Assembly: GCA_965113315.1 (NCBI GenBank)
Contig: OZ220365.1
DNA length: 64,000 nucleotides
Strand: one strand, 5' to 3'
From: Podarcis vaucheri
Lineage: Eukaryota
The notes beneath the pieces are model-generated. The model was not told the origin of the DNA. It worked only from the letters and a program-made list of their open reading frames with translations, and did no database searches. Shown here one piece after another: positions 11,339 to 62,078 of the stretch (positions within the stretch are counted from its first letter, which is position 1; each line of letters begins with the position of its first letter). The position numbers and the translations under genes are program-made.

Positions 11339-12821
11339 GGAATTCCTTAAAAATAATCGAGAAGATGAATTAATTCCAATTGTTTTTAATGGGTGTGCCA
11401 CTGTCTCATTCTCACATAAAATGTTTTGTTGATCCTGTTCCTGTTGCCGAGGCTCTTATCAGATTTTGCCACTGAGGTCATGGCTCTAGCAGCATTGCAT
11501 GGAATTTGTGGAAATGACTCTGAATAGGAGGAAAGGCGCAGTTCGGAATCAGTGATGTTCAAAAGGTCATGCTGAGTCATTGTACCTAGGATTTTTAATT
11601 TTTATTTTTAAACCCACTCCGTATTATGCTCAGCTAATTACTTTAAACAAATTAGTGGGGGAACTGAGATTTGCATTTGTTTTAATTGCTGTTGCTGAGG
11701 GTTTCAAGCAGCGTCCTCCCACACTCCAGGAAGAAATAATTAGATCTCAAGAAATAATAAGAAACCATTGGTGCAGACGGTGCTCCCTTTTGCCATTGGA
11801 GTTTCTCCATTGCTGAGCAGGTAGCTGGTTATTCAGGCATGCAGAGATCTGTAAAGCAGGTTAAGTTCTAGCCATCAACTCATATAAAATGATATAACTT
11901 AGCTAGTTAGAACGTGTCTACAATTCTGTGTCTACTATTTTAAAATATTTGAGGTGACCAATCTGAAAGTTTAAAGCAAACAGAAATGAAGCACCTCTTT
12001 ATACAGCTCAGCATGTCCTTATCCTGAAGAAATCATTCCCACAGCATGTCATGACGGCTACTGTACTTGCCAAAGCAGATTTTAAAAATATATGAGTACA
12101 GGGAGGACAGAGGGGAGGCCATATGGGCCACTTGGCCTCCGATTCCAAGGGGGCCTCAGTCAGCATACATTCTCTATGTATTTTTAAAAAGCACTATTGT
12201 ATATCTATATTTTCCATTTTGTCTTTATATGCAGATACGGTTCAAGCCTTGAAATAAAATTATTTGTCAGCATAACTTTTGTGAAAATTATTTATATACT
12301 TACCATATTTTTCGCTCCATAAGACACACTTTTTTCTTCCTAAAAAGTAAGGGGAAATGTCTGTGCGTCTTATGGAGCGAATGCGTGGTCCCTGGAGCCG
12401 AATTGCCCAAGGGCAAAAAGCAGATCATGCTTTTTTTTTTTTGAAAGCAGGAAGTGGATGTTGAAACAAAGCCGCTGATCGGGGAGAGAGATAAGGGATG
12501 CTAGAGATAAAGGAGGGAGGGAGGGGGGAGGTAAAAGCCCATGGATCCTCAGGGTTTTAATTCACCATCAGATCACACAGCATGTACATGGCTACAGCCT
12601 GCACCAAAAAAATCACGCACCCACTGTTGCCTGGGACCGCAATGGCACAAAAATGTGGTTACAAAGCACGGATCCACATGGATCCTCAGGATTTTTGCAT
12701 TGGGTCACCCCAAATTCATCATCAGATCACATGTCTGTGACCACAGCATGAACCACAAAAATCATACATCCACTGTTTCGTTGAGAATATTTTTTTTCTT
12801 GTTTTCCTTTCCTCCTCCTAA

Positions 12822-13550
12822 TAAAGGGAGATGGGAAAGGTTTCTCTCAATATTTTCTGTGCTTTGTATTCTGTACCGAAGAAAGGTTGCTCTCAAATAT
12901 TATCTACACATAGTAAATTCCTGCACTCTGCTAGGATGGTTACACAGCTCAAACTCAAAAATGCAGTTACGTGCAAAAGTCTAAATCAGACAGGTCAAAA
13001 GTCCATTTCCTGCCTAACCAGCTATTTGAAACTGCTGATGTTAGCTACAGGTCAGGAGGTCGTTTCCTGCCTAGCCAGAAACTGCTGTTAACTAAAACCA
13101 CTAGCAAGCTGTTTCCTGCTTTGCTTCTGCTTTAACTAATGCAAGAATAAGAAAAGATACGAAGGGAATGCTTAGCTAGCAAAAGAAGACACGTGTATGA
13201 AGGAGAGGGAAGGGAGTGCTTGGTTAGCAGAAAGACAGGAATGTTTAGCAAGCAATAAAATGTGTTTAGCAAGCAATATTTGCTAGCCGATTGGGGAAGT
13301 CTGGGGAAGGTGTGGGAGGGGGGGGAGTGTTCAGAAAAGTATAAGAAAGTCTGCTGAAGTGTCTTGCTTTACAGCCAGAATATTTTCAGGAGCTATCCAG
13401 CTGGTTGTCTCTGGGTACAGATTATCTCTGTGCACAGATTTTCAATAAACTCTTTTTCTCCAAAGAAGATTTTGCTTTCCTGGTACTTTTGTTCCCTCCG
13501 AGGTCCAGGGGATGGCGTGGCTAATGGATCCCTAGGTAAATAAGGCTTCA
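12822..13550 (+). repeat. ERV 5' LTR (729 bp)
   Basis: Direct repeat of 18181-18902; TATA-like TATAAGA at ~13340, AATAAA at 13444; ends in CTTCA. Confidence 0.95.
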
Positions 13551-13556
13551 TCTCTC

Positions 13557-13574
13557 TGGGGGCTCGTCCGGGAT
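13557..13574 (+). promoter_or_regulatory. Primer binding site, tRNA-Pro
   Basis: TGGGGGCTCGTCCGGGAT, the MLV-type tRNA-Pro PBS. Confidence 0.95.
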
Positions 13575-14189
13575 AAGCCCCCTCCCCAATACGGACCGGA
13601 GGGCCAGGCTCAACCAAAGTGAACAGCTCAGCAGCGTTTGCAGGCTCCCTGCGCACCCCACCTGTTTCGTGGGGAGAGCCAGCCACACTGTTCTGGAGTG
13701 GAGACATCTAGTTGAGGGAGAACAAGAGGACAGGACGGCGCCGAGGGGACAGGTCCGCAGCGGAAAAAGGTAAGCCCGAAGGAAAGGGCTAGGGGCCCGA
13801 GGGAAAGGGCCAGAGGCCTGATCAGCCTCACCTGGTAGCAGTAAGAGTGCCACCAGGAAAGGAATTGGTAAGGTTTGGGAAAGGGAATGGGGCGCCAGTA
13901 AGGTTTGGGAAAGGGAATGGGGCAGAGGGAATTGTGTGTGTGTGTTTTTGGCATGTTGCATGTCAGAATTATTTTGGTGTATTGCATGCTGGAGTTATTT
14001 TGGTGTGTTTAGTGTGTTATATTGATGTGTTTTGTATGTTGTATGTTGCATGTCAGATACTCTAGTGACTGAATTGTCAAGTGTGGGCCAAGGCTTAGTG
14101 TCCCCTTGGCCGAGCGATTGTAAGGTTGTGCATTTTCTGACAATATGTAGCATGTGGAGTGTGAGAGAATTTTGAAACCCTGTTAGGAG

Positions 14190-15156
14190 CGGAGTATCTG
14201 AATGCTTTTTAAATAACTGGAAAGCGGCCACGAAGAGTGATGATTTGGGGATTCAAATTGAAAAGAACAGAGACTCAGAACTTTATGTGAGGTGGACTTG
14301 CCGACCCAGGGAACTGTGTGGCTTTGATTTGCAATTAATCAACCCCCCCTGTGGCGAATCAACCCCCTGTGGCAAAATATATTAAATGTCCACCCAGACC
14401 AGGTCCCCTATATCTCTACATGGAAGACCAATGTAGAAAAGAATCTACCATGGCTAAAGTTTTGCTGTGACAGCAACACACAGAACAGGATTTGTACAGT
14501 GAAGCCTCTGGTGTTAGAAGACCCAGAAGATGAGGAGAGGGGAGTGATTAAGCCACCACCTTACACTCCAGCAACAGCCCCTCCAACAACCCCCCAGGCC
14601 AAAATCAAGAAGCACAGGGAGGTACTGGTGTAGGGGGAGGAGGACCTGCGAAGGAGGATAGTGAGACGGAAGAAGAGGAAGATGACGAAGAGTTTAGGAA
14701 GATACTAGATGATATGAATCAAGGAAAGAAAATGTGGACAGAAAAACAGAAAAAGAGACTAAAGGAGTTTGTAAAGCCATTTGAGGAAGAAGTTGGATGT
14801 GAGTCCCTTGTTAGTTGAGGCAACAGAAATGCTACACCCCTGAAAAGAGGAAGTGGGGACAGGCGGCGAAGAAAGTTATGTCTCACAGACAGTATGAGAA
14901 AACCAGGAAGGATCAGGCAGCCGGAGTAATGCCCCTTCGGAGGGTTTATGATCCACCAGCCCCTGTCCCAGCTGGACAAGCGAAGACACAGCATATACCC
15001 TTTTCAAGTGCAGATGTTTGTAATTGGAGAAATCAGAACCCCTCTTTTGAGGAGAATCCAGCAAAGATCATAAAACTGTTTGAAGGGATTTTTAAAACCT
15101 AAAATCCCACTTATGATGATGTACAATATCTCCTGGACTCACTACCAACTACAGAA
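14190..15156 (+). pseudogene. gag: ERV gag remnant (MA, PPPY late domain, N-terminal half of CA)
   Basis: HPDQVPYISTW (gamma MA motif), PPPY at ~14553, PLR...PFSSADVCNWRNQNPSFEENP...NPTYDDVQYLL (p30 CA); contains stops and frameshifts. Confidence 0.85.
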
Positions 15157-17148
15157 GCATTGCTTGGCCCCTGCATGAGTCAACTAGGGGAATAGAGAAG
15201 GATCTTTTTATATGGGGCAGGGAACAGCAACAGGCTTTTCAGGATTTCAAAGTGGCATTATAACAAGCCTCAGCGCTTGGCATCCAAACCCCGAGAAGCC
15301 TTTTAACCTGTTCATAGATGAAGACCAGGGGGGTAGCCAAGGGAGTCTTATGCCAGAAACTGAAAAATTGGCAGCAACCTGTCGCATACTTGTCAGAGAA
15401 GCTAACCCCAACAGAACAGAGGTTGCCCCCCACCCTGTATGAGAGCGATTGTGGCAGTGGCCACCCTACTCACAAAGGCAGATAAATTCACGTTTGGACA
15501 GGACACCACCTGTGTGACTCCACACGCAGTCCCAGCACTGCTTGACATGAAGGGTACCTATTTCCTCTCCCAAGCAAAGATGAGAAAGTGTCAGATGTTA
15601 TTGTTGCACCCGCGTTTGAAGTTCCAGGTCACCACTGCCCTCAACCCAGCTACCCTGTTGCCGGTAGGAGAAGGTGAGGAGCAGATGCACGATTGCATTG
15701 AAGTAATGGACGAAGTATATTCCAGCAGGCCTGATCTCAAAGACGAGACAAACGAGGCTGGGCAGCGGAAGGCAGGCTATGCAGTGGTAGCCCTGGAAGA
15801 CCAGGTGATTGAAGCAAAGTCACTCCCGCCTGGAACATCGGCCCAGCTGGCAGAACTAACTGCGCTTACCAGAGCCCTGAGCCTGGCAAAGGGACAGAAG
15901 ATAAACATTTATGCAGATTCTAAGTATGCATTCCTGACTTTACATGCCCATGGAGCCTTATGGAAAGAAAGAGGTTTGCTTACCTCCAGAGGAAGCCAGG
16001 TGGCCCACCCACAAGCCTTATTGAACCTTCTGGATGCTGTATGGGAGCCCGAAGCAGTAGCGGTTATCCATTGTTATGGACACACAACTGGACCAGGGGA
16101 AGTGGCCAGAGGAAATCGATTGGCAGACAAAGTGGCCAAGGAAGCAGCCCGGGAACTGGCCCCAGCTCCGATCATTGGAGCACTGATCCCAGAAGAAATT
16201 TTAAGCACCGCTGACAAGCCGGCCTACACAAAGCAGGAAAGGGACACTGCAGATGCCCAGGAGTTGACATTGTCCAAAGAAGGATGGTACCTCACCCCTG
16301 ATGACAGGATATGGATTCCAGAGTCCCTGCCCCGGCAAATAACTCAGAAATACCATGAGTCAACCCACATGGGGCCAGATGCCACAACCAAGCAGCTGGA
16401 GAAGTATGTCTATATAGCCAACCTTTATCAACTGGCAGCCCAGATTTCCAGGAAATGCCTGCTATGCCAAAAGAATAATCCCAGAACTCACTCCAGACGA
16501 TGTGGAACCACGTTACACCCTTGATGAACAGCAGTGGACCAGCCAAGAAGGAGCAACGCTCCAGGAAGGACCAGACAGCCGTGTTTTTGTGCCCCAACAT
16601 CTGGCCAGCACAATTGTAAAGAATTACCACGAGTCCACCCATTTGGGAGGCCCAGCTGCTAAAGCACACCTTGGGAGAATATTCTATCTCAACTAACTGC
16701 TGCTATAACTAACTGCTGCTATATCCCAAAATGTGCCCTGTGCGCCAACCAAGAGACTGAGAACTATCACCCTTTGAACTTCTATATGGCAGGCCAACCC
16801 CTTTCGTCCGAGACATCCCCGCCAGTTTGGGGCAGATGGGAGATCACATCACCCAAGAACAAGTGCAATCCCTGTGTTTGTTGTGTGTGTTTGCTTCCTT
16901 TCCAGGTATTCCCTCGAGCGTACACCTGCAGTCCCGCGGCAGTCTCGCTGAGCCGGTTCACCAGTTCCTCTGGGTGATAGCGTCTGGCGACCCCCTCATC
17001 CCCAACTGCAGTGAAAGTAGTCGAGGTGATCCCCTGGGTACATCACACGCATCTGAAGAAGGGTGTCTGGACTTGCAAGAGAAATCCTGCTGACCCTCTG
17101 AAGTTGATCATCACCTTGTGTCTGACGCTACCAGGGAAAAAGCGTTAG
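15157..17148 (+). pseudogene. pol: ERV pol remnant (RT connection, RNase H, two IN N-terminal domains, IN C-terminus)
   Basis: KPFNLFIDE, LNPATLLP, SAQLAELTAL, NIYADSKYAF, GNRLAD, YHESTHMG..CLLC, LSPFELLYGRP, PTAVKV...WVHHTHLK. Confidence 0.9.
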
Positions 17149-17238
17149 GCCACGGGCAACGAGATCCTGCGACTAATCATCACAAGGACAGTTACAAAGA
17201 CTTTTTCTTTTCTCTCATTTTCTTTATTGACTTGTTCT

Positions 17239-17646
17239 ATGTCTCATTGCCCTGACCCTACCGAACCATACCAACCCTACTGGCCTGCTGGCCTCTGCTA
17301 CGACTGGTTCGTCTTGCCGGTGGTAAGAGATGGCGTGCTCTTTGGCTATTGGAAACTGGGGTTTGATGAGATTGCCGTATTGAGACACCCCACTGCCCCG
17401 TTGTGGCTCCTCTCTCACACCACTGACCAGCACGCGTGGACAGTGCTCATACGGGAAGTTGCAGAGACGATCGAAATCTATCAAGTTCTGGACCACTCTT
17501 GCTGTTGTGGGAGGGTAGTCAACTGTTATCTGGGAGGTAGCGCACTGTACCAACCTCATTTGATAGACCAGGTCCTACTCTTAATCCAGGTGATAGATGG
17601 GACGGAACCTATCTTAATGCAAGTATTGCAGGGGTGGGAGCCTTAG
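17239..17646 (+). CDS. Unknown ERV-internal ORF (135 aa) in the env position
   Basis: First ATG downstream of the acceptor at 16905; open to TAG at 17646; no recognisable homology. Confidence 0.4.
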   Translation: MSHCPDPTEPYQPYWPAGLCYDWFVLPVVRDGVLFGYWKLGFDEIAVLRHPTAPLWLLSHTTDQHAWTVLIREVAETIEIYQVLDHSCCCGRVVNCYLGGSALYQPHLIDQVLLLIQVIDGTEPILMQVLQGWEP

Positions 17647-17961
17647 CCAGGTGTGCATTGGAATTGCTAAACAAGTGCCAGTAAGAATTGCCACCCCAGG
17701 ATTTCAGCTTCCATATGCTCTGGTCACTAGGGAGGCAGCACGAGAGTTCAATCCACCCAACAGGGTTAGTAGAAAAATTGACCCACATAGTGGGAGCATC
17801 AGCTCACCGGTGGGCTCTCATCCTTGAGGCTCAACAGGTAGTCGGGCACAAATATCAGTGGGCTCTTCAATATTGGTGGGAGGAACCATGGAGATATTGG
17901 GTTTGGTGGGTAGGAGTGATATGTACCGCCCTTGTCATATGGATGCTCTCGTATTTCTGTT

Positions 17962-18153
17962 GGCATGAACGGTATCGTATTTGTGGGAAGAATAGGCCCA
18001 ATAATGCTTCTATTGCTTTTCTGCTTCTGTATCCCCTGCTTATTGCAATGCTTGCAGCAAATGATGCAAAGACTCCTGTTACGAGAGCTAGGACCCACGG
18101 TCATCGCTGTGATGAGGGAGTATAGGCCCATACCCCAGAACGAATCTAAGTAA
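17962..18153 (+). pseudogene. env: env TM membrane anchor and cytoplasmic tail remnant
   Basis: IGPIMLLLLFCFCIPCLLQCLQQ...YRPI...*: hydrophobic anchor, PC motif and YxxPhi motif, directly before the PPT. Confidence 0.75.
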
Positions 18154-18180
18154 TAGATTGTTCAAAAGAAGAGGAGGGAG

Positions 18181-18902
18181 TAAAGGGAGATGGGAAAGGT
18201 TTCTCTCAATATTTTCTGTGCTTTGTATTCTGTACCGAAGAAAGGTTGCTCTCAAATATTATCTACACATAGTAAATTCCTGCACTCTGCTAGGATGGTT
18301 ACACAGCTCAAACTCAAAAATGCAGTTACGTGCAAAAGTCTAAATCAGACAGGTCAAAAGTCCATTTCCTGCCTAACCAGCTATTTGAAACTGCTGATGT
18401 TAGCTACAGGTCAGGAGGTCGTTTCCTGCCTAGCCAGAAACTGCTGTTAACTAAAACCACTAGCAAGCTGTTTCCTGCTTTGCTTCTGCTTTAACTAATG
18501 CAAGAATAAGAAAAGATACGAAGGGAATGCTTAGCTAGCAAAAGAAGACACGTGTATGAAGGAGAGGGAAGGGAGTGCTTGGTTAGCAGAAAGACAGGAA
18601 TGTTTAGCAAGCAATAAAATGTGTTTAGCAAGCAATATTTGCTAGCCGATTGGGGAAGTCTGGGGAGGGGGGGGGAGAGTGTTCAGAAAAGTATAAGAAA
18701 GTCTGCTGAAGTGTCTTGCTTTACAGCCAGAATATTTTCAGGAGCTATCCAGCTGGTTGTCTCTGGGTACAGATTATCTCTGTGCACAGATTTTCAATAA
18801 ACTCTTTTTCTCCAAAGAAGATTTTGCTTTCCTGGTACTTTTGTTCCCTCCGAGGTCCAGGGGATGGCGTGGCTAATGGATCCCTAGGTAAATAAGGCTT
18901 CA
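18181..18902 (+). repeat. ERV 3' LTR (722 bp)
   Basis: Preceded by the PPT AAAAGAAGAGGAGGG; differs visibly from the 5' LTR only in a G-rich tract (net 7 bp). Confidence 0.95.
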
Positions 18903-19166
18903 CTAAAAACTAGGTGCGTCTTATGGTCAGGTGCATCTTATGGAGCGAAAAATACGGTACTTATTTATAAGACTTCAGTTATTCCGAGGGTAAAAAGGGG
19001 GGGCACATTATCTACCCAGCCCGGGCCTCTGCCTGGCTCTGCAAGACCCTGGGGAGGAGGAGTCTTCTACCACTGTCGCTGTCTGCCAGCCCTAACAGCC
19101 AGAAATGTGATCTCCCATGTTCCAAGACAATACACTTTTGACTATCAGCTGCTGGTGATAAATGGC

Positions 19167-22898: not shown

Positions 22899-23235
22899 AG
22901 TAAAGGTAAAGGGACCCCTGACCATTAGGTCCAGTTGTGCCAGACTCTGGGGTTGTGGTGCTCATCTCACTTTATTGGCTGAGGGAGCCAGCGTACAGCT
23001 TCCGGGTCATGTGGCCAGCATGACTAACCCGCTTCTGGCGAACCAGTGCAGCGCACGAAAACGCCGTTTACCTTCCCACCGGAGCAGTACCTATTTATCT
23101 ACTTGCACTTTGACGTGCTATCGAACTGGTAGGTTGGCAGGAGCAGGGACTGAGTAACGGGAGCTCACCCCGTCACGAGGATTCGAACTACAGACCTTCT
23201 GATCGGCAAGCCCTAGGCTCTGTGGTTTAACCCAC
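22899..23235 (-). mobile_element. Sauria SINE
   Basis: Near full-length match to the other copies. Confidence 0.9.
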
Positions 23236-24757
23236 AAAAGTGCCGATACCTGCAAGGCTGATTCATAATCTGCCCACCTTCAACCCCAGTCATCTTCCTC
23301 CACCAAATTTACACTGTGCAGGAAAACCCCCTATTTACAACATTTTCCGGTTCCGCTGCTGTAGGGGCAGTCAACCGGGAAGTTCTCCTTCCAAATCTCT
23401 CCTTTTGCCATGGACTCGGCAGGTGGCCTCAGGCAAGTCACTGACTTTCCGCCTCCACGCCCTCGCCTGCCGTTTTTCTGCAATATGGGGTTTTTAATCT
23501 TGACTTCCCTTACAAAGCTATGGTAAGAATTCACTGCGACAACACGACTGAAGCTCTTTGAGCACCCTCAAACACTTTCTAAACGCACAGTGATTTTACT
23601 GCACTTTGAACAGGGTTGTCCCCTTGACTGCTGACAGGGTTGCAGCGCAGCAGGGAGAAATTTCCATCTGAGCATCTCTTTCCAGCTTCACCGATTAAAT
23701 TTTGCCCCTGTCATGTACACATGAAAGATGCACAGACCCAGAGCCAACACACAGGGCATTATGGGAAATGTAAAAGGCAACTTCAAACCACCCACTTCTG
23801 ACCACAGCGCCATTGCCACCTGCCGCTGCTAACACAGCCAGGTAAGCCAACTGGGATGCGGTCCATTTTGTCAGCGGCCCCCTCAAGACTCCTAAGGCAA
23901 GTATTGGAACCTGCTGGAAAAAGAATTGTTGACAGCACTGGCTTTTAACCATCGCTTTAGTGTAAATAGGATCCAGCAGTAGATACCGGTTTGTTTTCAT
24001 GTGATAAATCAGGTTTATGTAGTTGCTACGTAGGCGCCTCTTTCATTCAGACTGAAGAAACTGTCGTTCTGAGGTAATAAAAGGGGGAGGGCATTGCTTA
24101 ATATGGGAGGCAAAACAAATGTACAAAGAGAAGAATATTTGTTTTACATTTTAATGGGGATTCTTCAAACACAGCTGAGAGCCGAGAGTCCCTGCGGCTT
24201 GCCAAATCTTTTCCCTCAGTTCCCTTCTTCCACAGATGGTCGCTGTACAGAGCGATAAGACTACTATAATTCATGTTTGCACACCTTTATTGTGTACCCT
24301 AAAATGCAAGCGCCGGCTTGCATTGGTATACAGAAAACCATAGGCAACTCGCTGTGAAGGCGCTTTCCCTTTCCCATCAACACGGGTGTAATGTTCAAAA
24401 CATGACTTGAGTGGACTGAGGAGGACCAGGGCTTCAGAGCCAGATATCTCAAGGACTGATATTGTCATCTAAAAGCACAGAGGAAGAGAGAAATGGGCAT
24501 ATTTCAACGTATTATTTATTTTATGGTGTTTTGAATATTTTGTGGTAAACTGCCCAGGTAACATATTAGAAAGGCAAGGAATACTACTACTACTAATAAT
24601 AATAATAATACACACACCCCAGTCTCTGAGCAGCAAAGAGCTCGTTCCAGAAGATCCATAGTTTACTGGGGTTCCATTTCCTTGAAATTGAAGTCAATAG
24701 AGATGTTGGTGATTTTACAATATGTGGCTTTATTTATACACATATACAACCAGAGCA

Positions 24758-25110
24758 TGGGATGTGGGTGGCGCTGTGGTCTGAACCACAGAGCCTAGGA
24801 CTTGCCGATCAGAAGGTCAGCGATTTGAATCCCCACGACAGGGTGAGCTCCCGTTGCTCGGTCCCTGCTCCTGCCCACCTAGCAGTTCGAAAGCACGTCA
24901 AAGTGTAAGTAGATAAATAGGTACCGCTCCGGCGGGAAGATAAACAGCGTTTCTGTGCGCTGCTCTGGTTTCACCAGAAACGGCTTAGTCATGCTGGCCA
25001 CAAGACCCAGAAGCTGTCTGTGGACAAACGCCGGTTCCCTCAGCCAGTAAAGCTGCAACCCCAGAGTCGTCTGCGACTGGACCTAACAGTCAGGGTTACC
25101 TTTACCTTTT
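24758..25110 (+). mobile_element. Sauria SINE with TSD
   Basis: Flanked by the direct repeat cagagcatgggatg; (ACCTTT) tail. Confidence 0.9.
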
Positions 25111-27784: not shown

Positions 27785-28166
27785 TGTCCCATTAAACTTT
27801 AATTAGTTTAATGCTTATCAAATGTCCAGTGCGCTTCCGATGCCACAATGTCCCATTACAGCAGAGCATTTCGCACAGCGGCTCAAGAAGGGCTGGAGAG
27901 TCAGCATCTTTTCAATAAAGGAATCTTGGAGCAAGCGGTTTGGAACTCAAATAAAAGGTTTATTTACACAAAACAAAAACCCTGGTGAAGAATCACACAT
28001 TTCAGCAAACACGCCCCAAAAGAAAAAGGAAGGGGGAAGGGAAGGGGCAGGCACACGAGTGAGTTGACTATTTATACAAACTCACATTCCTGGAAGCCTA
28101 ACGACCTCCAGCTGCTCAGTGATTAGAGCGTCTTGATTAGAGCTTCTTAACCCTTTAATACCAACA
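27785..28166 (-). repeat. Copia 3' LTR
   Basis: Direct repeat of 32612-32993; PPT GAGCGAGAGGGGG at 28167-28179 on the minus strand. Confidence 0.95.
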
Positions 28167-28201
28167 CCCCCTCTCGCTCGTAACACTGAGCTGTACCAAC
28201 C

Positions 28202-31200
28202 TTAATTCAAATTTAAACCTGAACAGAAACATTTATGAGATTGCGGACTCAAAGCTTTTGTAAAACCGTCTGCGAGATTTTCTTGGCTTGGACAATACTT
28301 TAGTTCAATTAAACCTTGTTTTACACTTTGGCATACATTTTGATAACGGATATCCAAATGTTTTGTGTGTGCCTTGAATTGACCTGATTTAGCTAGTTTA
28401 ATACAAGGTTGATTGTCTTCCCACACTCTGATAGGTAGGGAACATTCTCCAAACAATTCTTGTACCAGTTGCTTATAAAATTCCAGTTCTCTACATACAT
28501 CTGATAATGCATTGAACTCAGATTCAGTTGAACTTAAAGCTATAAGTGATTGTTTTCTTGATCTCCAACCAATTAGTGCATTTCCAAATTTTATCGCCAT
28601 TCCTGACACTGATTTTCTATCTGGTCCAGCATCAGCCCAACTGCTGTCAGCCCAACATTCAAGTTGTGTGCTGCCCTCTGCTGATAGTTTTAAGCGAAAC
28701 CTTTTGGTAGTTTGGAGATACCTTAAAACTCTTTTTACTCCTTGCCAAGCATGCATTGATGGTTTTTCAGCTTGTCTACACAGCATGTTGACAGCATATG
28801 TTATATCGGGCCGAGTCCACTGTGCAATGTGGAGTAGACTGCCTATCGCTGACTGATAAACCCCGGGATTACAGAACTCTGCCTGTTGCTCAGTTTGAGC
28901 ATCCTTTGTGTAACTTAACTCCATTGGGGTTTTAACACCAGCAGAGTTGTCCATTTTAAACCTTTCCAGCAACTGCTGGATCTTAGCTTCTTGGCTGAGC
29001 CAATAGTTCCCATCTTCATCTTGCTGTATTTTAACTCCTAGATAAACAGATACATTGCCTAGTGATTTTATCTGAAACCTTTCTCCAAGATTTGTGGCAA
29101 ATTGTTGTGCAAGTTTATCGTCCTTTCCACTGTATAATAAATTGTCAACAAATATCAAGACTGCTTCTTGTTCACATCCCAAGCCTTTTAGATAAAGACA
29201 CGCATCTGCTGCGCTCTTTCTGAACCCCATGCTCTCTAGAGCATCGTTTAAGCAGGAATTCCAATTACGGGCAGACTGTTTCAACCCATAAATGGATTTG
29301 TGTAGGCGCCAGACCTGGTTTGGCTTGTCTCCTTCAAAACCTGGTGGTGGCGTCATATAGACTTCCTCCTGTAAGTCTGCATTTAAATAAGCCACATTGA
29401 CATCAAAATGAAACAGCTTATTTCCCTTCTTAGCTGAAGAGGCTAAAAGCATTCTTAATGACTCCGATCTTGAAGTAGGGGCATAAATTTGAGAATAGTG
29501 AACTCCTTTGCGCTGCGAAAACCCTTTTGCAACTAGTCGAGCTTTATATTGCAACTCCTCAGTAGTTGTGGGCTTTAAACGATATACCCATCGACAACCT
29601 ACAGCTTGTTGCCCTTTTGGAAGCTCTGTACTTGTAAACACACCGAGAGACTTCATTGAAGCCATCTCTTTTTCCATTGCTTCCTGCCACTTTGCGGCTT
29701 CTGAGCTTGGAAGCTGTTGTACCTCTACATAGCTATCTGGCTCACACTGTGCCATATTTACGTATACACTTGTCACCTTAAACCGCTCTGGCGGCTTGCC
29801 CTTTGTGGCACGTTTTGACCTGCGCAATTGCTCCTCTTGTGCCCCCTCTGACCGTTGGCTGTCAGAATCTGTCTCAGGCTTTATGTCTGGACGTGCCTCT
29901 AGGGATAAAGACCTCCGTTTAGATACCTCCCTTGGGCTTGGTGTTGCAGGCGACCTGCTTCGCTTTTGCTGTCTGCTAGGCCTAACGACTGGCGATGTTG
30001 GAACACTCTTAGATTCTGGCTTTTCTTCCTTAGGAGAAGAACCTTGTGCCTGGTCAGAATCTGCATCTGAACCATGTGCACCATCCCCTTCTGGCTCATC
30101 ACCCTCTGTACTTTCTTTCTCAGCATAAATGCCTAAATCATCTCTCAAAATGTCAGGGTTAGCATGTAAGTGAGTCCATCCAGATTGCTCACAAAATTCA
30201 GCGCTCCTACTGAGGACCACTCTTGTAGTATCCCCATCTGGGTTCACGAACCTCCAAGATTTGGCGTGTGGTTCGTACCCACAAAAGATGAGTTTCCTAG
30301 CCCTTGGACTTCCCTTTTTCCTTAACGCTTTTGGGATAAGTACATAGGCTTGAGATCCAAACACCCGAAAGTAATTAACTTTGGGCTTTTTCCCATATAA
30401 AGCAAAATATGGCGTAGTATCAATTACCGAATTATATACTCGATTCAGAACATGAGTAGCCGTCTGCCAGGCTTCCGCCCAGTAACTTTGAGGAAGTTTA
30501 GCATCAAACAACATAGAGTTTGCCAACTCTTGCAGAACCCTGTTTTTACGTTCGGCCACGCCTCCTTCTTGGGGGGAATAAGGTGTAGACAGACGATGCT
30601 TAATTCCCCTTTTCTTAAAGAAATTCTGCAACACAGACCCGGTAAATTCTGACCCTCTGTCTGTTTGAAAAGCAAGTACTCTAGTACCGAATTCAAGTTC
30701 TACTGCATGAACCCAATTTTTAACTGTTTCTGCAGTATCTGCTTTTGTTTTGAGAGGAAAAAACCATGTAACCTTTGTTTTGTCATCTGAAAGACACAGT
30801 GCATACCTCGAACCTCCCATGCTAGCAACAGGCATTGGGCCACATAGGTCCATATGCACAAGTTGGAATACCTTGTCAGATTTCCTATTTGAACTGGGAT
30901 AGCTGCATCTATGAACCTTCGCCCTTTTGCATGCAGTACAATCCAAATACTTAGTACATTTGTTCAATTTGCACCCTTCTGATAATTCAGGTTGTCTTTT
31001 AACATACTGAAAATTAATATGTCCCAAACGGCGATGCCATAAATGAACACAAGAATTATGGGTAGGCAAGTTCACACAACCAGCATGAACCTGTTCAACT
31101 TCATCTGGACTTGTCTCAAAATAATATAACCCATTTCTGCATTCCACCTGCAAAAGAGATACATTATTCTTTGAAATAGTGCAAACCCCATTTTCAAACA

Positions 31201-32347
31201 CAGTTTTAAACCCATTTCTATCAAGTTCTGACACAGACAAAATACACCCCTTCATTCCCTTTAGCACGTAGGCATCAATTTCTGTTTGCAAACACTTCAA
31301 AAACACTGTGCCTACGGTCTCTAAGGAACGTTTAGTTGAATCTGCCATTGTCACAACTTTAAGGGTTTGCAAATGTCTGCAATTCTGCAAACGGACACTA
31401 GATGGCGCCACCAGGTGGTGAGATGCACCACTGTCGATCAACCAGCGTAGATTGCTGCCTTGGCCACGCCCTTGCATCAACGCCATTGCTGAAGCCATGT
31501 GCTGTGTGCTGTGGGAGTAGCCACGACCTCCTCCTCTTCTTCGACGTCCCCTGGAACTCCTTGTCTGGTAACTAGGGGTAACAGCCTTGGTGCTGTCTTG
31601 ACCAGGTTCACGTGTACAATTCCTGATTAAATGGGAAGAGGAACCACAGCGAAAACAGTGTCTAGCTGCAAAAGCATTTACTGTGTTCTCAAACTCAGCA
31701 TCCCAACTCTTAGGCACAGCATAACTCCCCTTTGCAGACAAACCTCTTTCTCTTTGCCTTTTATCCTGTTCATCAGCAAGTCGAGAAGAAATGTATTCAA
31801 GGGTTAATTCAGATGAAGGCATAGCTTCCAAAGTTAAAGCTAGAGTCTCATAGCTTTTATCAAGAGAAGACAACAAAATGTATGACTGCTGCTCCATAGA
31901 GAAAGGAATGCCCAGCTGTCTTAGTTGATTAAAGGCAGACACCATTTTGGCAATATGTTCTTTCACACACGCTCCCGGTTGGAGACGTAAATCAAACAAA
32001 CATCTTGTAGCATGGATCTTGGCCCCCGCAGTGTTTCTGGAATTTAACCGCTGTAGAACCGTCCAGACCTCATGCGTGTTCTTTAACTCAGAAACATAAG
32101 GCATTTGCTCTGGTCCCACTGCCAAAACTAGTAGACCTCGGGCTTTCCTGTCGCGTTTCTGAGAAGCTGCCGCTGCTGCTTTGTCTTCTGCAGACGCGTC
32201 TGCAGCTGCCTGTAAATGCGGTGCTTCAGTACAACTCCACAACTCTTTTGCTTGCAACCAAACCCTTACTCTAGCCTTCCAATCTTGCCAATTTTTCCCA
32301 TTGAGTCGCGTAAAGGGGACAGTAAAACTTTCCTGGGACTCTGCCAT
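28202..32347 (-). CDS. Copia gag-pol polyprotein, 1381 aa (Gag, CCHC knuckle, PR, IN, RT, RNase H)
   Basis: LNGKNWQDWK, CFRCGSSSHLIRNC, WLIDSGASHH, LWHRRLGH, HMDLCGP, TDRGSEF, AERKNR, YKARLVAKG, FVDN, WADSSWA, NLADGFTK; IN precedes RT, the copia order. Confidence 0.97.
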   Translation of the reverse strand: MAESQESFTVPFTRLNGKNWQDWKARVRVWLQAKELWSCTEAPHLQAAADASAEDKAAAAASQKRDRKARGLLVLAVGPEQMPYVSELKNTHEVWTVLQRLNSRNTAGAKIHATRCLFDLRLQPGACVKEHIAKMVSAFNQLRQLGIPFSMEQQSYILLSSLDKSYETLALTLEAMPSSELTLEYISSRLADEQDKRQRERGLSAKGSYAVPKSWDAEFENTVNAFAARHCFRCGSSSHLIRNCTREPGQDSTKAVTPSYQTRSSRGRRRRGGGRGYSHSTQHMASAMALMQGRGQGSNLRWLIDSGASHHLVAPSSVRLQNCRHLQTLKVVTMADSTKRSLETVGTVFLKCLQTEIDAYVLKGMKGCILSVSELDRNGFKTVFENGVCTISKNNVSLLQVECRNGLYYFETSPDEVEQVHAGCVNLPTHNSCVHLWHRRLGHINFQYVKRQPELSEGCKLNKCTKYLDCTACKRAKVHRCSYPSSNRKSDKVFQLVHMDLCGPMPVASMGGSRYALCLSDDKTKVTWFFPLKTKADTAETVKNWVHAVELEFGTRVLAFQTDRGSEFTGSVLQNFFKKRGIKHRLSTPYSPQEGGVAERKNRVLQELANSMLFDAKLPQSYWAEAWQTATHVLNRVYNSVIDTTPYFALYGKKPKVNYFRVFGSQAYVLIPKALRKKGSPRARKLIFCGYEPHAKSWRFVNPDGDTTRVVLSRSAEFCEQSGWTHLHANPDILRDDLGIYAEKESTEGDEPEGDGAHGSDADSDQAQGSSPKEEKPESKSVPTSPVVRPSRQQKRSRSPATPSPREVSKRRSLSLEARPDIKPETDSDSQRSEGAQEEQLRRSKRATKGKPPERFKVTSVYVNMAQCEPDSYVEVQQLPSSEAAKWQEAMEKEMASMKSLGVFTSTELPKGQQAVGCRWVYRLKPTTTEELQYKARLVAKGFSQRKGVHYSQIYAPTSRSESLRMLLASSAKKGNKLFHFDVNVAYLNADLQEEVYMTPPPGFEGDKPNQVWRLHKSIYGLKQSARNWNSCLNDALESMGFRKSAADACLYLKGLGCEQEAVLIFVDNLLYSGKDDKLAQQFATNLGERFQIKSLGNVSVYLGVKIQQDEDGNYWLSQEAKIQQLLERFKMDNSAGVKTPMELSYTKDAQTEQQAEFCNPGVYQSAIGSLLHIAQWTRPDITYAVNMLCRQAEKPSMHAWQGVKRVLRYLQTTKRFRLKLSAEGSTQLECWADSSWADAGPDRKSVSGMAIKFGNALIGWRSRKQSLIALSSTESEFNALSDVCRELEFYKQLVQELFGECSLPIRVWEDNQPCIKLAKSGQFKAHTKHLDIRYQNVCQSVKQGLIELKYCPSQENLADGFTKALSPQSHKCFCSGLNLN

Positions 32348-32611
32348 CCTCCCTGGGGCTTAGGAACGATACTCACAGACCTGTAGACCGTCTCCCAGCT
32401 GCTGAGGTGGCTCCACGAGGAATAAGACGTCTTCCAGCGAGTACAAACTGCGCAGTGCCTCTTTAAAACTTTTCCTAGGCACGTTGCAGGACTCAAGCTG
32501 CTTTGAAGGCTTTCGTTGTCGGCAACCGCTTCTGTCTTCACTCCAGTCCTTTCATAAATCACTCTTAACTGCACTCCTTATCTCCTTCTTGACGTACAAA
32601 CAGCCATAACC

Positions 32612-32993
32612 TGTCCCGTTAAACTTTAATTAGTTTAATGCTTATCAAATGTCCAGTGCGCTTCCGATGCCACAATGTCCCATTACAGCAGAGCATTTCG
32701 CACAGCGGCTCAAGAAGGGCTGGAGAGTCAGCATCTTTTCAATAAAGGAATCTTGGAGCAAGCGGTTTGGAACTCAAATAAAAGGTTTATTTACACAAAA
32801 CAAAAACCCTGGTGAAGAATCACACATTTCAGCAAACACGCCCCAAAAGAAAAAGGAAGGGGGAAGGGAAGGGGCAGGCACACGAGTGAGTTGACTATTT
32901 ATACAAACTCACATTCCTGGAAGCCTAACGACCTCCAGCTGCTCAGTGATTAGAGCGTCTTGATTAGAGCTTCTTAACCCTTTAATACCAACA
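32612..32993 (-). repeat. Copia 5' LTR
   Basis: Followed directly on the minus strand by the GGTTATGG PBS (32604-32611). Confidence 0.95.
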
Positions 32994-36152: not shown

Positions 36153-36322
36153 NNNNNNNNNNNNNNNNNNNNNNNNNNNNNNNNNNNNNNNNNNNNNNNN
36201 NNNNNNNNNNNNNNNNNNNNNNNNNNNNNNNNNNNNNNNNNNNNNNNNNNNNNNNNNNNNNNNNNNNNNNNNNNNNNNNNNNNNNNNNNNNNNNNNNNNN
36301 NNNNNNNNNNNNNNNNNNNNNN
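36153..36322. other. Assembly gap (170 N)
   Basis: Run of N directly adjacent to the MAL exon 3 donor. Confidence 0.99.
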
Positions 36323-41531: not shown

Positions 41532-42243
41532 CCGTGGGCTAAAGCCTCAACGCCTAGGGCTTGCCGATCGAAAGGTCGGCGGTTCGAATCCCCGAGGCGG
41601 GGTGCGCTCCCGTTGTTCGGTCCCAGCGCCTGCCCACCTAGCAGTTCGAAAGCACCCCTGGGTGCAAGTAGATAAATAGGTACCGCTTACCAGCGGGAAG
41701 GTAAACGGCGTTCCGTGTGCGGCTCTGGCTCGCCAGAGCAGCGATGTCACGCTGGCCACGTGACCCGGAAGTGTCCCCGGACAGCGCTGGCCCCCGGCCA
41801 ATAAATGTGAGATGGGCGCACAAACCCCACAGTCTGTCAAGACTGGCCCATTCGGGCAGGGGTACCTTTACCTTTACCTTACTCCCAGGGATGCGGGTGG
41901 CGCTGTGGGTTAAACCACAGAGCCTAGGACTTGCCGATCAGAAGGTCGGCGGTTCGAATCCCCGCGACGGGGTGAGCTCCCATTGCTCGATCCCTGCTGC
42001 TGCCAACCTAGCAGTTCGAAAGCACACCAGTGCAAGTAGATAAATAGGTACCGCTCTGGTGGGAAAGTAAACGGCATTTCCGTGCGCTGCTGTGGTTCAC
42101 TAGAAGCTGCTTAGTCATGCTGGCCACATGACCCAGAAGCTGTATGCTGGCTCCCTTGGCCAGTAAAGCGAGATGAGCGCCGCAACCCCAAAGTCATCTG
42201 TGACTGGACCTAACGGTCAGGGGTCCCTTTACCTTTACCTTTA
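41532..42243 (+). mobile_element. Two head-to-tail Sauria SINEs (~41532-41880 and 41887-42243)
   Basis: Each ends in an ACCTTT tail; their 3' halves differ, consistent with two subfamilies. Confidence 0.9.
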
Positions 42244-45535: not shown

Positions 45536-45708
45536 CCTATAATGACTGAGTGGAAGCGGCTCTTCAGTGTTTCGGGCAGGGGACTTCCTAGACCTAGGTG
45601 GAGATACTGGGGGTTGAACCAAGCACATTCTGCATGCAAAACAGATGCTCTGCCACTGAGCTATGCCCCTTACCCCTCGGGGTAGCCAACATGAACCCAT
45701 CCCTTGAT

Positions 45709-46055
45709 AGTAAAGGGACCCCTGACCATGAGGTCCAGTCACGGACGACTCTGGGGTTGCAGCGCTCATCTCGCTTTATTGGCCGAGGGAGCCGGCGTAC
45801 GGCTTCCAGGTCATGTGGCCAGCATGACTAAGCCGCTTCTGGCGAACCAGAGCTGTGCACAGAAACGCTGTTTATCTTCCCGCCGGAGCGGTACCTATTT
45901 ATCTACTTGCACTTTGACGTGCTTTTGAACTGCTAGGTTGGCAGGAGCAGGGACCGAGCAACGGGAGCTCACCCCGCCGTGGGGATTCGAACTGCCGACC
46001 TTCTGATCGTCAAGTCCTAGGCTCTGTGGTTTAACCCACAGCGCCACCCGCGTCC
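45709..46055 (-). mobile_element. Sauria SINE, full length
   Basis: Close match to the other copies. Confidence 0.9.
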
Positions 46056-47030
46056 CCTCCGTCCCTCTGTAATACTGGGCTACAATTTCCATCATCCCTG
46101 GCCATTGGCCATGCTGACTGAGACTCATGGGAGTTGAGCCCACCACCAATCTATGGAAGCCACCATGTTGTCTACCTCTTGCATCCTAACCTTTGTAGAG
46201 ATGCCCCTGGAACACGTACAATTGCGCACACAGAGCAGATGTGATTTAGAGGCATGTTAAGGATGCAGTTCACAATTACTGAGGGTTCGATCCTCTTTAG
46301 AAGTTAATTCTGGCCAGCAGGGATGGGGAGAGAAGCTGATTCCCTTCCCACCCCCTGGAGAGGAAACGTTGCTGAATACACTCAAGCAGCAGCTATTTTT
46401 AAACCACATGCAAATCCATTGCGGAGGAATCTGCAATGGTCAATTTATCAACACATTACCCGAGAAGCCAGCGCAAGGCAGAGCAAATGCGGAGTTAATG
46501 AATATTGCAGGCAGAAAGGCACCCCCAGCCGTGCGCAGCAGCTGGGAGAGAGAGGGAGGCAACTCAGGGAAATCCTTGGTGTGGAAATAGGGAAATAACA
46601 AAGAACGTTCCTTTTCCTTTCTTCCTTTTGTCAGGTGCTGGAGGGTAAGGCAACGTCTGTTGGTTCCAAGACAATGTTGCTATTGTTGTTGGAATTAGCC
46701 TGACGGTCTCAAGAGACATTGGAGTATACCTCCAGGGGTGAAGTCAAACCACAAAGGTGCCCTTCCCAGGATGGAAGCCTGGGCAGCGTGTGTGGAGGTC
46801 CTGGCTGCCCAGATGACGAGACTCGCTGATGGGGTCTAAAGGAAAGCAGAGCAACACATTTGGCACCAGCTTGGCTGCAGGAGTTGCCGGAAGGAGGCAT
46901 ATAAGGCGCCATGCAACTGCCTTAGGGACTTCACTCAGGATTTGTGGTGGGATTACTCCTTAAAGCCTTTTCTTGTCTCGAAGATGTTCTGCAAGGCAGG
47001 TTTAGGATCTCAGTTTTCCTTCTCCTAGAT

Positions 47031-61782: not shown

Positions 61783-61976
61783 AGGGTTAGGGTTAGAGGG
61801 GTAGGGTCAGGGTCAGGGGTAGGGGTAGGGGTAGGGTTGGGGTTGGATTTAGGGTTAGGGTCAGGGGTAAGGGTAGGGGTAGGGTCAGGGTTTGAGGTAG
61901 AGTTAAAGTCGAGTAGGGGTAGGATTTGGGTTGGGGTTAGGGTCAGTGTTAGGGTTGGAGGTAGGGTTAGGGTTAG
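61783..61976 (+). repeat. Degenerate interstitial telomeric array
   Basis: TTAGGG interspersed with TCAGGG, GTAGGG and TTGGGG hexamers. Confidence 0.85.
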
Positions 61977-62078
61977 TTATTTTTTATTATTTTATTTTTA
62001 TTCTAAATTTTATTCTAGGTCACCCTTTAACCTTGTAGATTCCAGGGCAGCACATTACTCTGATATTTTATGAGAAAG

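Follow-up and report, generated by a model that had tools for sequence, protein, structure and literature searches.

Mobilisation in trans of defective retroelements is already known from koalas, cattle and humans. The koala element recKoRV1 is a defective recombinant of two dissimilar retroelements with microhomologies at its breakpoints and with target site duplications (TSDs), and its breakpoints are common to many loci, as set out in the passages on recKoRV1 in PMC6112702. Harlequin and other mosaic class I human endogenous retroviruses (HERVs) are taken as having been re-integrated by more complete "midwife" elements, the criterion being several copies with different flanks (the sections on these elements in PMC4724089). 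In cattle, the D-type elements of ERVK[2-1-LTR] carry no functional genes, are mobilised in trans by competent ones and can outnumber these (85% versus 15%), and their de novo mobilisation has been measured (PMC10924933, in its account of the D-type). Here we analyse a stretch of 64,000 nucleotides of the wall lizard Podarcis vaucheri (assembly GCA_965113315.1, contig OZ220365.1; hereafter the window), in which a provirus with near-identical long terminal repeats (LTRs) encloses a thoroughly damaged interior. Most probably it is a recent insertion into the germ line by a multi-copy, non-autonomous, gamma-like endogenous retrovirus (ERV) family of wall lizards that has been mobilised in trans, and its interior derives from two parental lineages.

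The lizard element resembles recKoRV1 as a defective recombinant of two retroelements with a microhomology at the joint and a TSD. It differs in that each of its parents is a lizard lineage of class I, that the joint, being out of register, leaves two integrase (IN) N-terminal domains, and that both parts have been further deleted. With Harlequin it shares a mosaic interior between matching LTRs; unlike those HERVs, which are old, this copy has LTRs that are nearly identical. As with the cattle D-type it has no functional genes and would be mobilised in trans, whereas the cattle element belongs to class II (ERVK) and is a deletion derivative of a single clade. The comparison with murine leukaemia virus (MLV) rests on an identical 18-mer of the primer binding site (PBS) for tRNA-Pro, on a match of the reverse transcriptase (RT) connection and RNase H region at E ~1e-60, and on the MA p15, p30, MLVIN_C and TLV_coat families found in the element or its relatives. 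In contrast to MLV, the LTR starts with TA and not TG, six nucleotides and not two precede the PBS, about 700 nt with extra open reading frames (ORFs) lie between pol and env, and the sequence is distant. A search of titles in the open-access literature (titles only, supplements not covered) returned no match for ERV studies of Podarcis or lacertids, nor for a doubled integrase domain in ERVs.

Table 1. Features of the provirus and its insertion site; positions are counted from the first letter of the window.
Feature	Position	Strand	Remarks
Provirus	12822-18902	+	gamma-like (class I) ERV nested in host MITE
5' LTR	12822-13550	+	729 nt; TA...CA ends; TATA-like 13340, AATAAA 13444; putative U3/R/U5 limits
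3' LTR	18181-18902	+	722 nt
PBS for tRNA-Pro	13557-13574	+	starts 6 nt past LTR end
Polypurine tract	18164-18180	+	abuts 3' LTR
Major splice donor candidate	13767-13776	+	exon end 13769; motif scan; putative function
Leader, presumed packaging region	3' of 13767-13776	+	putative function
gag remnant, lineage A	14200-15156	+	MA, p12 region, first quarter of CA; tblastn; frame changes and a stop
pol remnant, lineage A	15157-16488	+	RT thumb/connection, RNase H, full IN N-terminal (HHCC) domain; frame open over 15406-16524
Recombination joint	16478-16486	+	9-nt word identical to 16186-16194, equivalent upstream linker position
pol remnant, lineage B	16479-17150	+	second IN N-terminal domain, then C-terminal domain; P0156 likeness, tree
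Strongest splice-acceptor candidate	16885-16906	+	AG at 16904-16905
ORF X	17239-17646	+	135 codons; first ATG past strongest acceptor
Remnant of second pol-env ORF (P0148-like) entering env N-terminal hydrophobic region	17727-17987	+	48 aa at 58% to P0148; env P0146/P0150 share 29-31/40 aa
env transmembrane anchor and cytoplasmic tail	17995-18153	+	44/52 aa to P0146 (39/43 over a 43-aa stretch)
Left TSD copy CTAA	12818-12821	+	4 bp
Right TSD copy CTAA	18903-18906	.	4 bp
Left part of host MITE, interrupted by provirus	12300-12821	.	TIR, depth and loose ends
Right TSD and right end of host MITE	18903-18960	.	TIR

The element encodes no enzyme, its cis signals are intact, its breakpoints are shared with deep contigs and its ends are precise. 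Its 5' part is 83–97% identical to motif-complete Gag-Pol predictions of Podarcis: the capsid (CA) block shares 50–51 of 60 residues with the predicted proteins P0001, P0128 and P0145, and the pol blocks before the joint share 102/106, 131/135 and 86/95 residues with P0128. Against the latter protein the match ends at residue 181 (15156) and resumes near residues 827–831, a loss of about 650 codons that removes most of CA, the nucleocapsid (NC), the protease (PR) and the RT polymerase domain. An in-frame loss at 15747/15754 has cost RNase H 14 codons, among them the DGS motif and the first aspartate (by alignment with MLV RT and P0128), and the IN core, about 160 codons, is gone (versus P0007, residues 871 to 1034). 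Stops or changes of frame occur at eight or more other places, and no functional gag, pro, pol or env is left. The original prediction, made from the letters of the window alone, had described a jump from the middle of CA to the RT connection domain with loss of NC, PR and the RT polymerase, an RNase H lacking its TDGS motif, an IN lacking the DDE core, and added stops and frameshifts; all of this holds except the place of the CA break, which falls some 48 residues inside the p30 domain of Pfam (134–328) and so in the first quarter of CA rather than its middle.

RNase_H and Integrase_H2C2 are found above the Pfam cut-off, Gag_MA and Gag_p30 weakly and below it; the relatives at 83–97% identity give strong Pfam matches to the MA p15 and p30 Gag type. 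The best matches of the pol frame in the PDB are the RT-RNase H structures of MLV and of xenotropic MLV-related virus (XMRV), at E 1.9e-60. When the 371-residue pol frame was searched, 205 proteins were found among 7997 scored candidates. The best of them, P0001 at 90%, is from Podarcis muralis; P0002 of P. raffonei comes next at 89%, and Zootoca follows at 69%, which suggests a host within Podarcis or a near lacertid relative. By these likenesses the element is a class I (gamma-like) ERV. The pol frame itself (372 codons, 15406–16524) is free of stops despite the broken remnants on either side, and a deep sub-variant has 370 nt of it deleted.

The cis signals show the layout of LTR, PBS and polypurine tract with a short, 4-bp TSD that is typical of a class I ERV. 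The PBS 18-mer is identical to an MLV PBS-Pro probe printed in PMC4587795, in the part of that paper that gives the probe. Both LTRs run TA...CA and not the canonical TG...CA. The TA start is probably a family trait, because it occurs in both LTRs and also in a contig of a public sequencing run (X2, depth 1110) that joins the polypurine tract to the LTR. It does not exclude integrase action, since the CA at the U3 end was dispensable in Rous sarcoma virus (RSV), according to the relevant section of the review PMC12789967. Six bases (13551–13556) separate the terminal CA of the LTR from the PBS and are missing at the right junction; the usual trimmed length is two or three bases (same review, same section). 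Comparison of the element with itself found no internal LTR, and an Rfam scan gave three weak matches, none of them inside the element.

The two LTRs align with 721 matches, one mismatch and seven gap columns, every difference falling within the G-rich tract 13308–13324. At an assumed rate of 1–3e-9 per site per year, the 0–1 substitutions in 722 nt date the insertion to 0–0.7 million years (Myr) ago, with an upper bound of 0.9–3.9 Myr. At a 97.5% bound the divergence of the LTRs allows the interior of 4630 nt at most about 12–18 substitutions since insertion. Five large rearrangements and the small lesions besides would need more than that, so the decay predates the insertion. The identity of this LTR pair is informative, as U3 varies by about 8% within the family (13/168, X1 record 1).

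Public sequencing runs bear on the same point. Part of the interior occurs in 20 of the 24 runs listed (nine studies, six organism labels; best share 0.57 of words), and no RNA run is among the listed runs that contain it. Four runs were compared over 12300–18180, namely X1, X2 and X5 (contigs) and X23 (RNA, about 12% of it read). A junction was counted as bridged when 31 letters crossed it, among 24 pieces inspected, with 25858 others beyond them; contig depth does not measure copy number, and the window itself could come from X1 or X2. The three contig runs each cover all 30 bins. The joint between the two lineages is bridged without gaps by X1 record 5 (16350–16528, depth 1097) and by X2 record 14 (depth 3798); X5 record 18 (15687–15994, no gaps, depth 445) bridges the RNase H deletion. 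As deep contigs of other runs, with three organism labels among them, cross both of these breakpoints, the deletions do not belong to this copy alone, and the damage was inherited and is older than this insertion. At the junction between CA and RT, X1 and X2 hold a variant that joins 15163 to 15261, which is suggestive only; the env junction is crossed by slightly fewer than 31 letters (X5 record 24), and the IN-core junction has no bridge among these pieces. Nested deletions occur as well, from 15702 to 16073 in four of the four runs and from 17363 to 17536 in two of the four, one deep sub-variant deleting 172 nt of ORF X. More distant relatives (about 87–90%) are present at lower depth, one X2 contig diverges from the window just before the RNase H deletion, and some small frame breaks of the window are absent from the dominant contigs.

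Motif-complete Gag-Pol predictions, in which the NC, PR, RT, RNase H and IN D,D,E motifs are all present (P0128 and P0145), occur in two Podarcis species, and for this reason helper-type proviruses are likely to exist in the lineage. The original prediction had held that the LTRs differ visibly at one G-run only, that PBS, polypurine tract and leader are intact, that decay preceded insertion, that an active helper retrovirus exists or recently existed in the lineage, and that copies with the same breakpoints should be sought; the alignment, the located cis signals, the substitution bound and the two recurring junctions agree with it, and the Gag-Pol predictions are candidates for such a helper. 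Serial deletions would have stripped every catalytic core and most of env while the LTRs, PBS, leader and polypurine tract were retained. The element would then be transcribed from its LTR, packaged by way of its leader and primed by tRNA-Pro, and the Gag-Pol of intact class I proviruses would carry out packaging, reverse transcription and integration in trans. Several P. raffonei predictions (P0004, P0070, P0152–P0155) are relatives of lineage A with PR and RT motifs and without IN core motifs; they may form another defective subfamily, in which case complementation among partial elements is possible, or they may be artefacts of gene prediction.

The original prediction did not contain the two-parent origin, and was incomplete in this respect; nor did it mention the deletion in env, the TA with which the LTR starts, the six bases before the PBS or ORF X. 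Within the element the nearest relatives change at a single point, and it is a recombinant of two parents. Identity to the Podarcis Gag-Pol predictions is 35–50% in the 3' part of pol. The blocks that follow the joint share only 15/37, 13/30 and 13/20 residues with P0128, compared with 30/37 with P0156 and 22/30 with P0007, and P0156 carries its B-type IN domain (30/37) beside an RNase H of its own (76/135 to that of the element). The two IN N-terminal domains are 58% identical in DNA (155/265) and 41% over 61 residues; the second is disrupted by a 16-nt duplication at 16691–16723, and the lineage-B part has a core deletion near 16750–16761 and another small deletion in the C-terminal domain. 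A tree of IN domains (27 rows, 25 of them relatives chosen by hand from about 156 proteins; 68 alignment columns; bootstrap unsettled) places domain A beside P0001/P0002 (96/96) and domain B beside P0156 (98/98), and a single clade of A and B, a test group fixed before the tree was viewed, is rejected (p-AU 0.0002). Within the element the 9-nt word at the joint is confined to 16478–16486 and 16186–16194.

Chimerism and microhomology are thus plain to see in the sequence, and the route to them may be read in more than one way. We favour a template switch, in which RT copying lineage-B RNA would have moved to a co-packaged lineage-A RNA at the 9-nt microhomology; being out of register, the switch would have left the IN N-terminal domain twice. 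Alternatively, the second domain would stem from an old tandem duplication, or from a DNA-level insertion or ectopic recombination of two proviruses. A 9-nt match could equally guide DNA repair, and PMC6112702 allows both routes where it discusses recKoRV. Tandem duplication within one virus is ruled out by the tree, the rejected clade and the non-A sequence beyond the joint, and no internal LTR was seen; we consider this group of explanations unlikely, and a DNA-level route would leave the later spread unchanged. A second crossover near 17990 is possible, because the env tail matches P0146 at 39/43 residues and the N-terminal part of env at 29–31/40.

It is equally unlikely, in our judgement, that the element was retained or spread for a useful product, either ORF X or the 372-codon pol frame. 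ORF X begins at the first ATG beyond an acceptor that is the sole interior site with at least 15 of 20 pyrimidines before YAG-R, while a looser scan of 16760–17900 gives 14 YAG sites with at least 12 pyrimidines. Three homologs were found among 32 candidates, all from Logan (79%, 62% and 72%), and at 62–79% identity these keep the start and the N-terminal 34 residues. The differences from P0121 are more conservative than neutral (P=0.006), and a stop-free run of 164 codons arose in 1% of 2000 simulated sequences. Against this, the differences from P0122 look neutral (11 at first and 13 at second positions, P=0.08), the homologs were detected precisely as open frames, deep sub-variants lack 172 nt of ORF X or, in the pol frame, 370 nt (P0123 shows a frame switch of this kind), no splice joint was listed in the part of X23 read, and ORF X has no Pfam family and no match in the ESM Atlas. 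None of eight pattern matches in viral contigs was confirmed, and an AlphaFold2 model from five sequences (pLDDT 37) is unusable. As to ORF X being the shadow of another frame, 16 of its 25 single-base differences from P0121 would be silent in the +1 frame (38% expected), as would 13 of the 25 in the in-register antisense frame (34% expected); stops are numerous in the +1 frame, though, and the bias is absent from P0122.

ORF X may once have been a real gene of the donor virus, a view we hold at somewhat less than even; that it still functions in this element is doubtful. Similarly doubtful is a fuller picture, a still-mobile recombinant parasite without enzymes that retains behind the acceptor ORF X, an undescribed accessory gene acquired from an unsequenced complex gamma-like virus, and integrates precisely despite its non-canonical U3 end. 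If true, ORF X would be a new family of accessory proteins of reptile retroviruses, expressed instead of env. A continuation of ORF X into P0148 as one long ancestral ORF found no support, as 63–83 of 1000 shuffles scored equally high. Further on, a deletion near 17990 has removed the surface unit and the ectodomain of the transmembrane subunit, about 365 codons; relative to the 465-residue env P0146, which gives TLV_coat above the Pfam cut-off and hence a gamma-type env, about the first 45 and the last 52 residues survive. An ORF at 17688–18125 was considered as a new membrane protein and rejected, since it combines a piece resembling P0148 with the N-terminus of env and the env tail read out of frame; P0149, which it matches, is a repeat artefact. 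P0146/P0150 is annotated "syncytin-1-like" under four P. muralis accessions, whose two sequences differ at three residues, and probably represents a young family of ERV env genes rather than a gene that was domesticated.

Mobilisation in trans of an already defective element has also to be weighed against an old provirus that decayed in place, with LTRs kept identical by gene conversion or by assembly collapse. Conversion between LTRs 5.4 kb apart would be compatible with a single copy, and the listed runs contain the stretch only in part. This is nevertheless very improbable, as the breakpoints recur in deep contigs that carry other organism labels, one spot does distinguish the LTRs, the two TSD copies match exactly and the provirus cleanly interrupts a miniature inverted-repeat transposable element (MITE). 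The terminal inverted repeats (TIRs) of this MITE are 24 nt long and 96% identical (12301–12324 versus 18936–18959), and uninterrupted copies carry a single CTAA at this place (loose ends at 12808 in X1, X5 and X23), so that the empty site they offer is paralogous rather than orthologous. This MITE, about 580 bp long and presumably Tc1/mariner-like, is very high-copy in all three contig runs (depth 1e5–1e6) and plentiful in RNA. A processed pseudogene made by L1, whose hallmarks are an R-to-R structure, a poly-A tail and a long TSD, is ruled out by the two full LTRs, the lack of a tail and the 4-bp TSD, and the precise ends with this TSD point to a retroviral integrase instead.

Several observations do weigh against a recombinant family mobilised in trans. 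Only two of the five main junctions passed the bridging rule among the pieces inspected, no contig listed spans the element, and full copies with different flanks were not seen in these fragmented contigs. The IN tree is short and its bootstrap unsettled, and a close complete Pol of lineage B was not found (one match among 26 candidates, 69% over 66 residues). The sense-strand depth of X23 is 0–7 across the interior, reaches 22 at the env tail and is 0.3–1.4 over U3, which shows the family to be little expressed in that sample and hints that an expressed env relative may carry another U3 or LTR.

Elsewhere in the window, an intact-looking Ty1/copia LTR retrotransposon lies 9 kb from the ERV on the minus strand (27785–32993), with 382-nt LTRs that show one difference and one ORF of 1385 codons with gag, protease, integrase and RVT_2 domains; its enzymes are an unlikely helper for the ERV. 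Dispersed repeats of about 350 nt with 75–89% identity, which we take to be SINE-like, occur for example at 22900–23236, 24759–25109, 41888–42236 and 45710–46056. The window further contains an assembly gap of 170 N (36153–36322), one tRNA-Ala called by ARAGORN on the minus strand (45597–45670) and a degenerate G-rich tract of 6-nt repeats resembling telomeric repeats (61797–61992).

The locus extends the pattern of a defective recombinant riding on a helper from mammals to squamates and needs no new mechanism. It points to mobilisation of a retrovirus in the recent past of a wall-lizard lineage, and the TA end offers a natural example of relaxed U3 recognition. The doubled IN domain is a unique scar by which the family can be counted, dated and traced across species, and polymorphic insertions would serve as clean population markers.

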